Of a DNA stretch of 64,000 nucleotides, positions 2,159 to 20,167 are shown piece by piece (the first letter of the stretch is position 1; each line of letters begins with the position of its first letter). Both the position numbers and the translations under genes were made by a program. The notes under the pieces were generated by a model. The model worked only from the letters and a program-made list of their open reading frames with translations. It searched no databases and was not told the origin of the DNA. Source of the DNA: Escherichia coli (GTDB lineage: Bacteria; Pseudomonadota; Gammaproteobacteria; Enterobacterales; Enterobacteriaceae); the NCBI RefSeq assembly GCF_003018235.1, contig NZ_CP027437.1. One strand, 5' to 3'.

Positions 2159-2618
2159 TAACCACCCCGCCAGCTTCTTTGAATTTGGCAATCAGACTAT
2201 CGATCTTGTGTTCATACTGACCGTAGCCAGCACCGGGCAATGAGGCCCAAATATTGCTGCAACGATCAATAGCCTGACGAATATCACCCCGATCAATCAG
2301 CGGCAGCGCGCCGCGTTCTTTAATCTGCTGTAACGCCACCGCATCCTGGCTTTTCGGGGAGAAATCTTTCAGTCCAAGCTGTTTACGGTAGGCGTCCCAC
2401 CATTTCGACAGCAGTTGATAACGCCCGGCGGCGGTGGATTTCAGTTTCGGGTTAAGCGTAACCAGCTTACGTGGATGATCGGAGTAATCAGTAAGCAGTT
2501 CGCCACCAACGATAACGTCATAACCATGATTTCTGGTCTTCTGCCATCCGTTATCAGTTCCTTCTGACCACGCCAGCATATCGAGGAAGGCTTTACGCTG
2601 AGGATTAAGGTTTTGCAT
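2142..2618 (-). CDS. R: endolysin, lambda R-type lytic transglycosylase
   Basis: 158-aa product near-identical over most of its length to recalled lambda R (QRKAFLDMLAWSEGTDNG...GDIRQAIDRCSNIWASLPGAGYGQ). Confidence 0.9.
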   Translation of the reverse strand: MQNLNPQRKAFLDMLAWSEGTDNGWQKTRNHGYDVIVGGELLTDYSDHPRKLVTLNPKLKSTAAGRYQLLSKWWDAYRKQLGLKDFSPKSQDAVALQQIKERGALPLIDRGDIRQAIDRCSNIWASLPGAGYGQYEHKIDSLIAKFKEAGGVVNETSL

Positions 2619-2922
2619 TTTTCACCCCTGTCAGTCGTTCCCAGAAGTAAGTCAGCGCAACTGAACCCATTGCACCGCTGATCCCTGCTGTGGCGAGAAT
2701 CATGTAAATGCTAAATCCGCTTTCGATACTTATCAGGCCACCAATAACACCGGTAAAACCCGATACCACTATCTGAGCCAGAGCATTAATCCAGCTCCAT
2801 GTTGCTTTGCTCTGCTTCACATCAATCAGGTAACGGACAAGCCCGCCCCAGCACGCGAAGATCAGCAGAACGAGCCAGGACATCCCGGCAATGCTCTCTT
2901 TTTCGTGCATATGAATAGCCAT
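2605..2922 (-). CDS. holin (not lambda S family)
   Basis: About 105 aa with hydrophobic TM segments, dual-Met N-terminus MAIHMHEK, immediately upstream of and overlapping the endolysin gene. Confidence 0.55.
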   Translation of the reverse strand: MAIHMHEKESIAGMSWLVLLIFACWGGLVRYLIDVKQSKATWSWINALAQIVVSGFTGVIGGLISIESGFSIYMILATAGISGAMGSVALTYFWERLTGVKNAKP

Positions 2923-2951
2923 GATTTTGCCGCCGACGGATGATCGGGACT

Positions 2952-3449
2952 CTAAATGATAGGGAACAGACTCACGGGGTAATTTAACGACAAAGCACGG
3001 AGTTGAAGATCCCCACAAGCCTGGAATAAAAAAGCCAGCGACAGGCTGGCAATGTGAGGGTAACGCAAAGTGCTTAGAAACAAAAAAAGGCCGCCATCGG
3101 CGACCTTCGAGGTATCTAGCGTGCTGGATACTTTCAGCTTCGCCTTCAATTCAGCGTTGATTTCTTTCAGGCGATCAACATCGTTTTTAAGTTTTTCAAT
3201 GTCTTGCCCTTTATTATCAAGGTCGCGCTGAAGACCTTTAATAATTTCTGTTTGGGCCGCCTGTACTTCTCGTGTCGTCTGGAGAGACTTATCAATATCA
3301 TCAACTTGGTTAATCAAGCGTGTACCGAAAAAGCCTACAACTAACATAGTTATCCCAACCATAAAGTTGAGAACCCAGACTTTTGTTCCGGAAGCAGTGT
3401 TTGGAGTTTCGTCGATAAAGTGCACCTTATGCCAGTTAAAGTTACCCAA
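2952..3449 (-). CDS. hypothetical membrane/coiled-coil protein; 3' part of ORF probably non-coding
   Basis: TTG-initiated track ORF; internal ATG precedes a TM segment and coiled coil; C-terminal about 45 codons overlie two hairpin+T-tract terminators. Confidence 0.25.
   Translation of the reverse strand: MGNFNWHKVHFIDETPNTASGTKVWVLNFMVGITMLVVGFFGTRLINQVDDIDKSLQTTREVQAAQTEIIKGLQRDLDNKGQDIEKLKNDVDRLKEINAELKAKLKVSSTLDTSKVADGGLFLFLSTLRYPHIASLSLAFLFQACGDLQLRALSLNYPVSLFPII
3030..3107 (-). terminator. two tandem rho-independent terminators in the Q-to-holin interval (tR'-like)
   Basis: On minus strand: hairpin GCCAGCCTGTCGCTGGC followed by TTTTTTATT, and hairpin GGTCGCCGATGGCGGCC followed by TTTTTTTGTTT. 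Confidence 0.45.
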
Positions 3450-3908
3450 CGTCTGCGCAGATCGTTAGATTCGGCAACATTGTAACTGGATAAGGAATAG
3501 AAAACCTTGGAATTTTAAGAAGAAACTGATTGATCGATTATTTAACGAGCGAACACATCCATACACCCCAGACGGGTACTACGACAAAGGCCATGAAATA
3601 AGTAACTTTTGCTTGAATGTTTTGCATTTCGCTTCCTTAGCAGTCCGATAAGTACTGTCTGCTCATCCAACCTAACGAATGTAGATCAGAATGACAAGTC
3701 TTTCGCGCTAATTTCAATTTGATATCTGTTCGTAAACATGATGGCGCGAAATATTACGCATGAAGTGCTTCTACATCAACATAAAAGTTACTTTTTTTGT
3801 GTTCACAGCATGTAAAGTAAAAGCCCCGCACGATGGCGAGGCTGTTAATTCTTTGTCGACCAACAAAGCTATGGCGACGATATCAGATTTACATGAAATA
3901 TAAGCGTT

Positions 3909-4598
3909 TCAGTTCGGTTTTGCAAGACTTACGTGCAAACTTGTCGCCTTTTGTTGTGAACGTGATCGCGTTACTGAGATAAGCGCACCGCTATCGAGTC
4001 GCATAAAGCAGCTACGCATTGCCAACCAGTGAGGCAGGTATGTCTCTGTCCAGGTGGATTTCGCCACGCCAACCAGTTCCGCCAGCTTCTGGTATTCGTA
4101 GGCATCTTTCCCGACCAACCCTGCTTTGACATCCTGCGCTGCCAGCCATATCAGCTTCTTCAGGCGCTCCATGGTCTTGCCTGCCACCCTCTTCGCGCCG
4201 AGATACCCCCTGAATTCAGACCACGCCCACTGGGTGATCGCCACCTGGTATTCAAAGCTGATGTTTTCACTGTAACTCCACAGCAACCACGCTTTCTGAT
4301 GTTCTTCGAGAGACAGAACCGCGCGGCGCCATGAAGATGTTGAGAACTCAACCTGGCTGACCAGTGCAATGGATGAACCTTTTGCGTACGACTGCTTACC
4401 GGAAATCGGCGGATTATCCAGCGTAATCATCTTGCCCGTTACCTCATCCAGAATGCGCGGCTTCTTTCGTTTATATGTACCAGTATCAAATTGTGCATGC
4501 TCCAGCCAGGCTTCAAGCTGGCCTTTCGTTGCTCCGCTCAAATCAGCAGTAGCCACAATGAGTTGCTCGCGGACATACTGTAAATATTGGGTATTCAT
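3909..4598 (-). CDS. putative late-gene antiterminator Q-like protein
   Basis: 229-aa ORF occupying the Q position (downstream of rusA-ylcG, upstream of lysis genes); start overlaps ylcG stop (ATGA); family assignment tentative. Confidence 0.45.
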   Translation of the reverse strand: MNTQYLQYVREQLIVATADLSGATKGQLEAWLEHAQFDTGTYKRKKPRILDEVTGKMITLDNPPISGKQSYAKGSSIALVSQVEFSTSSWRRAVLSLEEHQKAWLLWSYSENISFEYQVAITQWAWSEFRGYLGAKRVAGKTMERLKKLIWLAAQDVKAGLVGKDAYEYQKLAELVGVAKSTWTETYLPHWLAMRSCFMRLDSGALISVTRSRSQQKATSLHVSLAKPN

Positions 4599-4735
4599 GC
4601 GGCAGCTCCTTTCAGTGTTTTGGCGTAATTCTTCAGTATCCGGTAATCGGTCAAAACAGAACCGGGGAAACGATATAAGCGCAGGCGCATCCAGCGGTGG
4701 CGAAGACGTTCTGCCATATAAGACTCAAACATCAT
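4595..4735 (-). CDS. ylcG: small DUF3950-type protein YlcG
   Basis: 46-codon ORF ([46 protein letters not shown]) coupled by ATGA overlaps to rusA and Q; matches recalled K-12 YlcG. Confidence 0.6.
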
Positions 4736-6191: not shown

Positions 6192-6974
6192 TTAGGCGCA
6201 ATACAAAGGATCATTAGCAGCTCTAATACCGCCCTGAATCGCAAGCCCTGTATGGCAATTTGACATTGAGCATGATTGCCATCTGTGCAAGGGACCTCCA
6301 TTAATCGAAACTTCCAGCAGATCTTTATCTCCTTTCATCCTGACCCCTTCATACAACATATCAAGACGCTCAACAATCAATCCTGTTGGAGGTTCCATTT
6401 TTAGAACGAGGGCAAACTCTCCTGGCCCACGTCGTATTGTTATACGCGGGCCGGTACACTCCACATCCCAATTGTCTGATTTAGCTTTCCATTCATTTTC
6501 ATCTATCAGTAAAGTCTCCTTACCAATAGAATTACAGAAAATTCCTGATAAAAGCATCGGTCCATGTGGTATGGGTGAAGGTTTCACAGAAAGAATGGGT
6601 TGTTCGTTGACTACAATCAAATTTTGACAGTTATGAAACGTCACTCCTGCAAATTTTACTGTTATAGGCTCATTATGAAAATCAAACATTTCATTTGCAA
6701 AACCAGCCTGTAAGCACTTGGGATTTCTGTCAGCTATTTCCACTGTCTGTGCTGAAAGTCTACCACGAGCTCTTTTTTGATTGCATTGGGAGCAAAGAAG
6801 TGTCATTCCATTCGGATCATGTACTTTGGCATCAACGAAGTCAGGTTTAAAATGCTCATAATCATAAAATCCAAATCCACAAATTACACAGCCAAAGCCG
6901 CACCTTTGCCTTATCTGACGTTTTATTGTCTCAGGTATTCTTCTTGAGAGCCCGTGTTTATTAATATTGTCCAT
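6192..6974 (-). CDS. HNH-domain protein with uncharacterised C-terminal domain (prophage cargo)
   Basis: 260 aa; N-terminal CGFGCVICG...YEHFKP...NGMTLLCSQCNQK fits HNH nuclease motif; about 160-aa C-terminal region unrecognised; AT-rich codon usage. Confidence 0.5.
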   Translation of the reverse strand: MDNINKHGLSRRIPETIKRQIRQRCGFGCVICGFGFYDYEHFKPDFVDAKVHDPNGMTLLCSQCNQKRARGRLSAQTVEIADRNPKCLQAGFANEMFDFHNEPITVKFAGVTFHNCQNLIVVNEQPILSVKPSPIPHGPMLLSGIFCNSIGKETLLIDENEWKAKSDNWDVECTGPRITIRRGPGEFALVLKMEPPTGLIVERLDMLYEGVRMKGDKDLLEVSINGGPLHRWQSCSMSNCHTGLAIQGGIRAANDPLYCA

Positions 6975-10765: not shown

Positions 10766-11781
10766 AGATCCACCCCGTAAATCCAGTCTGTGTTTGTCAG
10801 GTCGAGTTTTGGTTTGCTAGCTGTCACGCCTGCCTGTTGCTTGTTACGGTTGATTTCGAGTTGGGTCCACTTGTCGCGGAGTTTGGCCGGACTTAGCACG
10901 TTACCGGACCAGAAGTTGTCCTGGCATGCCCAGCGGAACAGCACGCACATGTCGCGGTGGTTACGTCCGTCACGTTCACGCATCAGGCGGATATCGTTAG
11001 CCCACCCTGCAAAATTCGGTTTTCTGGCTGATGGCGCGATGGTCTTCACCATGTCAAACATCCACTCTGCGGCGGTCAGGTCTTCTGCTGTCCCCCACTT
11101 GCTGCCGCTCTGAATTGCAGCATCCGGTTTCACCACAGGAAGATCGTTTTCTGGTTGGTCAGAGGATTCGCCAGAATTCTCGGACGAAAAAGGTTTTATA
11201 TTGTCTTTTGTTAGTTTGTCTTTTGTGTTTACCTGATTCGGGTAAACGCCTTTACCTGATTTGGGTAAACTTTTTTTACCTGATTCAGGTAAATTTACCT
11301 CTTTCAGGTAAACTTTATTTTTCTTACCTGATTCGGGTAATGTTGACCATTCACTGACCACATTATTAATGCCGGTATTCCGCCCGCTCTGAATAAAAAT
11401 CCCACGCTTTACCAGAACACTTTTTGCAGCAGAACACTTGTGCGGCAATATCCCGGTTAATTCGGAAAGTTGCTCGTTGCTAACCCAATCCAGTTTTTTA
11501 TTAAAGCCATATGTTTTGCGCATGACAGCCAGAAAGACCAGAAGCTGGTGCTGTGTTAATCCGGCCAGCATCACAGCTTCCAGCAACTCATTTGCAATGC
11601 GCGTATAACCATCATCGAGATCTGCCACGCGCGGCTCCTTTTGTGCCGCATCCGGCACTGGAAAATTGAATATCTCAGCAGTGTTTGCCATAATTCCTCC
11701 CGCAATGAGTGTGTTACGATTTGCACCTGAAAGTCGGTTCTGTTCCAGCAGACCGGCTTTCGCCATTTCTGAACCTGTCAT
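10762..11781 (-). CDS. O: replication initiator O-like protein (iteron-binding)
   Basis: 339-aa ORF upstream of P containing an internal array of 17-bp iterons; N-terminal region resembles lambda O (ADLDDGY...); C-terminal acidic linker. Confidence 0.8.
   Translation of the reverse strand: MTGSEMAKAGLLEQNRLSGANRNTLIAGGIMANTAEIFNFPVPDAAQKEPRVADLDDGYTRIANELLEAVMLAGLTQHQLLVFLAVMRKTYGFNKKLDWVSNEQLSELTGILPHKCSAAKSVLVKRGIFIQSGRNTGINNVVSEWSTLPESGKKNKVYLKEVNLPESGKKSLPKSGKGVYPNQVNTKDKLTKDNIKPFSSENSGESSDQPENDLPVVKPDAAIQSGSKWGTAEDLTAAEWMFDMVKTIAPSARKPNFAGWANDIRLMRERDGRNHRDMCVLFRWACQDNFWSGNVLSPAKLRDKWTQLEINRNKQQAGVTASKPKLDLTNTDWIYGVDL
11180..11340. repeat. phage replication origin: five 17-bp iterons (TTACC-N7-GGTAA) plus adjacent AT-rich tract, inside O
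   Basis: Repeats TTACCTGATTCGGGTAA (x2), TTACCTGATTTGGGTAA, TTACCTGATTCAGGTAA, TTACCTCTTTCAGGTAA at roughly 18-29 bp spacing; AT-rich block on the O-downstream side. Confidence 0.75.
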
Positions 11782-20090: not shown

Positions 20091-20167
20091 TGGCGCGCCC
20101 TGCAGGATTCGAACCTGCGGCCCACGACTTAGAAGGTCGTTGCTCTATCCAACTGAGCTAAGGGCGC
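20091..20167 (-). tRNA. argU: tRNA-Arg (anticodon UCU), argU; prophage attachment site
   Basis: Reverse complement reads GCGCCCTTAGCTCAGTTGGATAGAGCAACGACCTTCTAAGTCGTGGGCCGCAGGTTCGAATCCTGCAGGGCGCGCCA, a cloverleaf with UCU anticodon. Confidence 0.9.

Follow-up and report, generated by a model that had tools for sequence, protein, structure and literature searches.

A predicted late-promoter leader and a probable moron cassette with a stop-less long gene in the Q-to-holin interval of an Escherichia coli phage region

The interval between the Q antiterminator gene and the holin gene was analyzed in a 64,000-nucleotide stretch of Escherichia coli DNA (NCBI RefSeq assembly GCF_003018235.1, contig NZ_CP027437.1), referred to as the window. 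Coordinates are window positions, and the late phage genes of this region are all encoded on the minus strand, as are the features of the interval. This interval consists of two separate things, a predicted late promoter unit, which includes a putative short leader RNA of the isrJ type, and an inserted gene cassette of ∼0.7 kb, which carries a micro-open reading frame (micro-ORF) for a 29-residue hydrophobic peptide followed by a longer gene. The frame of the longer gene enters a predicted transcription terminator with no stop codon ahead of it, a layout that is kept throughout the main clade of its homologues. The interpretation favored here, with slightly better than even confidence, is that of a late leader followed by a moron cassette whose long gene would be expressed from non-stop messenger RNA (mRNA), its product accumulating only under particular conditions.

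A long gene without a stop codon ahead of its predicted terminator

Homologues of the long protein form 16 clusters among 5.8 billion proteins, and a profile search among 1.84 billion proteins returned 17 representatives at E ≤ 1e-10. The DNA of the homologue clusters, together with 51 viral contigs, provides a set of 59 prophage loci, which excludes the window copy and to which the counts of loci below refer. Selection on coding frames was expressed as the ratio of non-synonymous to synonymous single-base codon differences (N/S), with the shifted frames serving as control. The core of the gene (3084..3416) comprises 111 codons, beginning with ATC 3416..3414. It is represented by 39 unique coding sequences (CDS) from six genera, among which N/S is 0.50 in frame, whereas the shifted frames give 4.3 and 7.3. 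The first-pass annotation of this DNA had proposed that the region encodes regulatory RNA or terminator features rather than a protein; purifying selection in one frame of ∼111 codons contradicts that view.

The same annotation had drawn an ORF of 165 amino acids (aa) initiating at TTG (2952..3449). The frame exists as described, but as drawn it is a chimera, and the TTG does not stand as its start. The codon, at 3449, sits in the 3′ arm of a hairpin of the upstream spacer, and the 25 nt around it are near-identical in the window group and in an Enterobacter group in which the TTG is out of frame. It belongs to conserved non-coding DNA whose frame differs between lineages. In two E. coli genomes sharing the interval, the RefSeq/PGAP annotation follows the same frame to the same stop from GTG 3425, as a hypothetical protein of 157 aa; this GTG overlaps the Shine-Dalgarno (SD) sequence and reads GTA in close relatives.

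Every one of the 59 loci has an in-frame codon, ATA in 51 and ATC in 8, located 8-10 nt past the SD core, an invariant TAAGG at 3429..3425, and the distance from this codon to the EVQ motif downstream is fixed at 48-49 codons. No in-frame ATG, GTG or TTG occurs upstream, back to the previous stop, in 16 of the loci, and the first internal ATG of the gene is not conserved. The coding signal begins at the ATA/ATC codon, with N/S dropping from 7.7 over the preceding 30 nt to 0.55 in codons 2-18 (2.65 and 9.1 in the shifted frames). Because the codon is conserved behind an SD sequence and N/S switches at this very position, translation most likely starts at AUC 3416..3414. In E. coli, AUA and AUC initiate at ∼1-2% of the level of AUG (10.1101/063800).

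Within the open frame, at the 3′ edge of the cassette, lies the predicted terminator T1 (3079..3108), composed of GAAGGTCGCC-GAT-GGCGGCCTT and a T7 tract; its stem (3108..3086) has a folding energy of -15.4 kcal/mol, with z = -3.2 relative to shuffled sequences. The conserved protein runs via ...KLKVSSTLDTSK into KVADGGLF, its ∼8 last residues, which are encoded by the stem, loop and T-tract of the terminator, and the homologues share nothing beyond. A canonical hairpin followed by T5-8 occupies the same codon position, with no in-frame stop ahead, in 59/59 loci. These hairpins have stems of 8-10 bp, loops of 3-4 nt (often UUCG) and energies from -11 to -18 kcal/mol. They comprise 24 variants with compensatory changes, in which pair levels 3-7 show 3-4 pair types each (G-C, C-G and A-T at level 3). 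Since the MAFFT alignment put terminators with 3-nt loops out of register, these pairs were counted in a structure-anchored manner, which leans toward pairing; direct evidence for the hairpin comes from the 8-10 contiguous pairs, followed by T5-8, that are present in each version. The hairpin-encoded codons have an N/S of 1.41, which indicates that the RNA, and not the peptide, is constrained there.

As no stop precedes T1, transcripts terminated at this site would be non-stop mRNAs. Two distant relatives do have a stop before the hairpin, TAA 12 nt or TGA 4 nt ahead of it, and both keep the micro-ORF as well as an ATA at a similar distance behind an SD-like sequence. That these genes end before the hairpin identifies it as the terminator of the gene, and implies that the stop-less state is maintained in the main clade without being a necessity. 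A scan of viral contigs seeded on these two relatives yielded no contigs beyond those already in the set.

Past the terminator, the frame enters DNA that differs from one insertion to the next. Across 28 unrelated downstream contexts, the frame reaches its first stop at 14-171 nt from the beginning of the T-tract, and the mean distance of 74 nt equals that in shuffled tails (74 nt; Kolmogorov-Smirnov p = 0.40). Within the first 13 nt, a zero-frame stop is found at 0/28 junctions versus 11/56 for the other frames (Fisher p = 0.008), the junctions not being fully independent. Further on there is no stop avoidance, the mean first-stop distances being 72, 68 and 56 nt in the three frames.

In the window, the ‘tail’ of the drawn ORF (2952..3083, ∼43 codons plus TAG 2954..2952) is leader DNA of the phage backbone, which is read in frame because no stop precedes it; positions 3068..2900 align at 84% to a cassette-less phage with Q and holin. 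This tail contains a second predicted terminator, T2 (3028..3050; GCCAGC-CTGTC-GCTGGC and T6), with a stem at 3050..3034 of -10.9 kcal/mol (z = -3.6). T2 is part of the backbone upstream of the holin and is also present in the empty-site phage L067. The earlier observation that two hairpin and T-tract terminators underlie the 3′ part of the ORF is therefore accurate, and the doubt cast on its 3′ end is justified in that the last ∼45 codons are not genuine gene sequence, given that tails are unrelated among the 28 junctions and that the one seen here recurs in a phage lacking the cassette.

The predicted product of the long gene crosses the membrane once and has an extended coiled coil. A short N-terminus is followed by one transmembrane helix (VWVLNFMVGITMLVVGFFG, residues 13-31), a coiled coil of ∼65 residues and a short tail; AlphaFold2 (AF2) models a single continuous helix over residues 7-100 (pLDDT 73) and a disordered C-terminal end. 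Automated gene calls for this family are faulty in every genome, with wrong starts and arbitrary C-termini. Public gene calls for the protein range from 97 to 165 aa and start at TTG, GTG or an internal ATG, and one record is named ‘conjugal transfer protein TraF’, apparently from its junk tail. An identity as Rz-type i-spanin, raised by a weak PHROG match (E = 5e-4), was rejected: hhalign against the Rz of this phage gives a probability of 0.3%, the micro-ORF is without lipobox, and the phage already has Rz/Rz1.

The cassette, its first gene and its distribution

The cassette extends over ∼3785-3072, with its own promoter as 5′ edge and T1 as 3′ edge. The predicted sigma-70 promoter (3743..3779) has a -35 hexamer TTGATG at 3779..3774, a spacing of 17 nt and a -10 hexamer TAATAT at 3756..3751, followed by the GC-rich discriminator TTCGCGCC. 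The window version scores 8/12, under the threshold of the general promoter scan; the arrangement TTGnnn-16/17-TAnnAT-(N)GCGC occurs in 58/59 loci, most commonly as TTGATA-16-TATAAT (33 loci). The 5′ untranslated region (UTR) of ∼115 nt (3628..3742) has conserved blocks in an alignment of 36 non-redundant upstream regions, among them an invariant SD sequence, CTAAGGA at 3640..3634, ahead of the micro-ORF. RNAalifold found no consensus pairs in this 5′ UTR. In L068, one of the distant relatives, whose gene ends in a normal stop, the DNA just ahead of the cassette promoter carries tandem repeats, GTTCTAGATG (x3.9) and AAAACGATACT (x2.5), at 1156-1229 of that locus.

A 29-codon minus-strand ORF with a ribosome-binding site had been noticed before, and it is indeed found at 3627..3538, its ATG standing behind CTAAGGAAG. 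The encoded peptide, MQNIQAKVTYFMAFVVVPVWGVWMCSLVK, has a mean Kyte-Doolittle hydropathy of 1.04 and one hydrophobic run of helix length. The micro-ORF (3538..3627) is present in 59/59 loci, always with 29 codons, in 32 DNA versions and 21 peptide versions, and it starts with ATG in 16 loci and TTG in 43. Its variable sites are distributed 18/6/23 over the three codon positions, and N/S is 0.53 in frame versus 3.8 and 9.3 in the shifted frames. On this comparative evidence, the micro-ORF is a real gene for a putative single-helix membrane peptide, which among the loci with gene calls shown is annotated just once (L009). The description of the ∼460 bp that follow the Q gene as AT-rich and non-coding accordingly holds for composition, with 39.4% GC over the 459 nt of 3450-3908 against 49.7% for the whole window and 51.6% for the Q gene, and fails for coding content, as the stretch includes this conserved gene and two predicted promoters.

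The spacer of ∼120 nt between the two genes (3417..3537) is conserved as nucleic acid in an alignment of 34 versions. All 34 share a TAnAAT box (3484..3479) and an AAG 22 nt upstream of it, with no recognizable -35 element; the box may serve as an internal promoter, or else as a sigma-dependent pause element. The small central hairpin of the spacer, CTAAC...GTTGG at 3468..3446, keeps its pairing through two-sided changes at 6/8 pairs. A stem that would sequester the SD sequence, CCTTATCCAGTTA...TAACTGGCATAAGG, was seen by eye and discarded: RNAalifold on 23 versions gives it no support, the apparent SD-masking stems of other lineages use non-homologous columns, and covariation is confined to the central hairpin.

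Wherever neighbors were examined in the 59 loci, the cassette is placed between an antiterminator and lysis genes. The Q families ahead of it number at least four (PF06323, PF03589, PF06530/DUF1133 and one unassigned family) and the downstream holins belong to at least five families, with a methyltransferase or tRNAs sometimes intervening. Similarity between lineages starts at the -35 hexamer and stops within a few nt of the T-tract. An empty site is provided by phage L067, whose Q type and holin are the same as here but are separated by only 320 bp; its alignment to the window breaks off at 3880 and resumes at 3068. The whole interval is found in 2/5426 complete E. coli genomes and some version of it in 24/5426 at lower stringency; most other E. 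coli matches share just the Q end with isrJ, and the holin end. E. coli EC21Z-137 and S1bESBLb carry the cassette, with 99.7-100% identity over the interval. One 50-kb Enterobacter ‘plasmid’ carries the cassette, and tblastn of both cassette proteins against 50,697 deposited phage genomes gave no match.

Morons are promoter-gene-terminator cassettes that occur in lambdoid late regions, such as HK97 gp15, lambda bor and lom, or stx between Q and S. The present cassette has its own predicted promoter at the 5′ side and its own predicted terminator at the 3′ side, it is present or absent among related phages, and its GC content deviates from that of its surroundings (41% versus 50%). These properties mark it as a moron, in all probability a self-contained mobile unit.

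The predicted late promoter unit and neighboring features

The minus-strand gene order is Q antiterminator, interval, LydA-type holin, then GH24 lysozyme and Rz/Rz1. The Q gene (3909..4598, 229 aa; PF06323 at E = 1e-91, phrog_304 at E = 1e-104) is outside the cassette. In the first-pass annotation, the equivalents of pR′, qut and tR′ were expected directly after it, and a promoter-like site, an isrJ match and a terminator are present at this place. The predicted pR′-like late promoter (3897..3925) was detected by a consensus scan, with -35 TTGCAA, a spacing of 17 nt and -10 TATATT, and it is the sole promoter-like site in 2500-4700 at the threshold of the scan. It is oriented toward the lysis genes and lies immediately downstream of Q, so close that its -35 element overlaps the 3′ end of the gene (Q stop at 3909).

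Four nt past this promoter begins a 74-nt match to isrJ (3820..3893; RF01393), which covers model positions 1-75 of 75 and scores 64.9 bits, against a gathering score of 37 and 100.3 bits for Gifsy-1's own copy. The match ends in a predicted tR′-like leader terminator, a hairpin at 3843..3822 with a T run to 3815, and the leader folds with -23 kcal/mol (z = -2.3 versus shuffles). In the region as a whole, 6 terminator-like sites are counted versus 2.3 ± 1.6 in shuffles. An isrJ element directly 3′ of a PF06323-type Q is also found in E. coli M37H and Klebsiella (L002, L004). The pR′-like promoter and the first ∼17 transcribed bases (TGTAAATCTGATAT) are near-invariant in five loci with a PF06323-type Q, including Gifsy-1 and the empty-site phage; in one of these phages the leader continues with a different hairpin, the promoter and early bases still being kept, and the leaders that accompany other Q families are unrelated. 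This is the pattern expected of a putative Q-loading site joined to a short terminated leader.

IsrJ is a small RNA (sRNA) detected in Salmonella, with its own start site and terminator, and reported to be virulence-related (PMC4825925). For one Q type, the isrJ family seems to correspond to the late-promoter leader RNA, a role not mentioned in the literature consulted, in which IsrJ is given as an sRNA (PMC4825925). Such a role would bear on how the reported virulence phenotype of IsrJ is read. In Salmonella Gifsy-1 (L003), the prophage in which IsrJ was defined, Rfam matches to isrK, C4 antisense RNA and c4-a1b1 targets are located between Q and isrJ (1684-1882 and 2533-2607 of that locus), where the isrK-orf45-anrP unit looks like an inserted C4/antirepressor module of the P1/P7 immI type.

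The holin gene (2605..2922; PF16083 at E = 1.7e-22, phrog_785 at E = 2e-40) is the first of the lysis genes. In-frame ATGs occur at both 2922 and 2910, separated by four codons (M-A-I-H-M...), of which PGAP picks 2910, and this may be a dual-start holin/antiholin motif. Farther upstream, a minus-strand ORF of 260 aa (6192-6974) with Cys-rich motifs (CGFGCVICGF..., CSQCNQ) is situated in a lower-GC patch upstream of nin-region genes and may be another accessory insert. At 11228-11349, five palindromic repeats of ∼19 nt (TTTACCTGATTYGGGTAAA), spaced by 19-29 nt and following a 15-nt tandem pair (11196-11225), look like the iteron array of a lambdoid replication origin; because of these repeats, a weak Rfam match to rliD is considered spurious. 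The sole tRNA of the window is a minus-strand tRNA-Arg (anticodon TCT) at 20091-20167. In the related phages L002 and L100, tRNA clusters (Asn/Thr/Arg) replace the cassette in the Q-to-holin interval.

Proposed expression, alternatives and known systems

The elements described above suggest the following scheme. Transcripts from the late promoter would halt at the isrJ-type leader terminator unless Q has modified the polymerase. In the lysogen, RNA from the cassette promoter, which looks constitutive, would end at T1, and this terminator would also shield the lysis genes from cassette-promoter read-through. The 29-aa peptide would be translated normally in this state, and the long gene rarely, owing to its weak AUC/AUA start; with few ribosomes following the polymerase for the same reason, T1 would remain efficient. 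Ribosomes translating the long gene would run off the 3′ end of a non-stop mRNA, and the product would be tagged by transfer-messenger RNA (tmRNA) and degraded, as is the case for ArfA and BrfA. Work on terminators placed within ORFs agrees with this, in that transcripts which terminate there trigger trans-translation, and a terminator late in the ORF is partly suppressed when a ribosome follows closely (PMC4824070). Accumulation of the protein could take place by two routes, either through Q-modified polymerase, which in lytic growth would read past T1 and include an arbitrary downstream stop, or through saturation or disabling of trans-translation. As to the role of the long protein, a late or stress-triggered membrane function, for example in lysis control or exclusion, is offered as a guess.

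Several points weigh against this scheme. Sequence searches of the cassette proteins in Pfam, PHROGs, NCBIfam, PADLOC and the PDB give coiled-coil noise only. A conserved AUA start is unusual, and the case for initiation there consists of its conservation and of the onset of the coding signal. The stop-less state might be tolerated rather than selected, considering that past 13 nt the zero frame shows no excess openness over the others and that the junctions are not fully independent. Finally, if most natural transcripts of the cassette were made by Q-modified polymerase, termination at T1 would be rare and the lack of a stop of little consequence.

A stricter version of the scheme, which is less likely than not, treats T1 as a gate acting at the protein level: the gene would be deliberately stop-less and its product destroyed unless Q causes read-through or tmRNA is overwhelmed, for instance by a superinfecting phage or by RNA-cleaving toxins. 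If so, Q antitermination would be a switch for a protein encoded upstream in addition to downstream genes. Alternatively, the cassette could sense the capacity for ribosome rescue in the manner of ArfA and trigger a membrane effector in response.

Among the competing explanations, the one that carries most weight, though still rather unlikely, is that of an ordinary moron with a sloppy 3′ end, in which the terminator overlaps the end of the gene and the missing stop has no regulatory role. The protein would then bear whatever tail arises from read-through or from ribosome-protected transcripts, and an occasional non-stop product would be harmless. The tails do behave like random sequence, the residues encoded by the hairpin are under RNA rather than protein constraint, and the disorder that AF2 shows at the C-terminal end suggests that junk tails may be tolerated. 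Moreover, a terminator late in an ORF can be suppressed by ribosomes (PMC4824070). This explanation has difficulty with a stop-less state that persists through 39 CDS, 24 hairpin variants and 28 junctions, even though one point mutation could make a stop, and stops are present in two distant relatives. In addition, every locus couples the stop-less gene to a start of ∼1-2% efficiency; this would leave the terminator with less protection by ribosomes, making non-stop products the rule and not the exception. A module resembling type I toxin-antitoxin systems, or another small-toxin module, is improbable. The peptide would be a membrane toxin serving addiction or abortive infection and kept in check by RNA structure, by an antisense RNA or by the long protein as a labile antitoxin. 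In size and hydrophobicity, the peptide is like toxins of the TisB, ZorO and DinQ type, the 5′ UTR is conserved over ∼115-150 nt, the peptide has a weak TTG start in 43/59 loci, and the predicted instability of its partner fits toxin-antitoxin logic. On the other hand, a simple consensus scan, which a weak promoter could escape, detected no opposite-strand promoter or terminator in 2500-4700; there is no Rfam antitoxin RNA at E ≤ 1, no consensus structure in the 5′ UTR and no PADLOC match; and the output of an AUA-started antitoxin would be far below that of a toxin with a strong SD sequence.

The two remaining explanations have less to recommend them. It is very improbable that the long frame works as a translation-coupled attenuator, in which a ribosome behind the polymerase melts T1, and here also T2, to gate transcription of the lysis genes. 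The window frame spans both terminators and reaches its stop at 2952, 30 nt before the holin ATG, and suppression of in-ORF terminators by ribosomes is documented (PMC4824070). This configuration is not general, however, as most loci reach a stop 14-100 nt beyond T1, and a methyltransferase gene or tRNAs often come next. The backbone of this phage, and not the cassette, is the source of T2 and of the long tail, and a constitutive promoter reaching the holin would be lethal for the lysogen. Least credible of all, to the point of being nearly dismissed, is an interval made of regulatory RNA and terminators only, with the long ORF as a chance frame. Low GC content (39-44%), several terminators, the lack of a Pfam family and the lack of a canonical conserved start would agree with it; it is refuted by the frame-shift controls, which show the selection on the 111 codons to be frame-specific, and it leaves the conserved transmembrane segment and the heptad-type coiled coil unaccounted for.

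Several known systems share parts of this organization. In lambda, the constitutive pR′ promoter located just after Q directs a short terminated RNA (6S RNA, ending at tR′) and is associated with qut. The late unit of the window is similar to lambda pR′/6S/tR′ and to IsrJ in having a predicted promoter right after Q and a putative short terminated RNA, and its promoter and early bases co-vary with Q type. It differs from Gifsy-1, in which the C4/antirepressor module separates isrJ from Q, in that isrJ directly follows Q. Like known morons, the cassette combines its own predicted promoter and terminator with lower GC content, absence from similar phages and a site between Q and lysis genes; unlike them, it has two genes and not one, its terminator is inside the second gene, and the start of that gene is non-canonical. 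With type I toxins (TisB, ZorO, DinQ, Ibs, ShoB), the micro-ORF shares a single-helix hydrophobic product of ∼29 aa and a long 5′ UTR, but it shows no sequence similarity to them and is always co-transcribed, by prediction, with a second membrane protein gene.

With regard to initiation, infC and pcnB in E. coli use AUU starts. The long gene resembles them in its conserved near-cognate AUN start, which would keep translation low or regulated; it uses AUA or AUC and not AUU, and the autoregulation linked to IF3 is not evidenced for the cassette. If the proposed mechanism is true, enterobacterial phages would offer a natural case of conserved initiation at AUA/AUC.

The closest parallel to the missing stop is given by arfA of E. 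coli and brfA of Bacillus subtilis, for which a terminator inside the ORF has been shown experimentally to generate non-stop mRNA and to place the gene under tmRNA control (PMC6881298, PMC8012679). There, as by prediction in the cassette, a rho-independent terminator or a cleavage hairpin lies in the coding region ahead of the stop; the natural mRNA of arfA and brfA thus lacks a stop, the product is a substrate of trans-translation and the codons after the terminator are dispensable (PMC6881298, PMC8012679). The resemblance is one of gene layout only: the long protein is not a member of the ArfA or BrfA family, with no Pfam or NCBIfam match and no sequence relationship, and no phage or prophage gene with a stop-less, terminator-in-ORF layout was found described in the literature consulted. 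ArfA and BrfA are small cytoplasmic rescue factors encoded on the chromosome, with ordinary starts and a fixed stop a few codons past the terminator. The long gene of the cassette, in contrast, encodes a predicted phage membrane/coiled-coil protein, begins at AUA or AUC, receives its stop from the flanking DNA and sits downstream of a Q-dependent promoter that would be able to override the terminator. If the mechanism holds, gene control through non-stop mRNA would extend from the two known ribosome-rescue factors to a mobile phage gene, and an antiterminator would control the stability of a protein through the presence of a stop codon in its mRNA.

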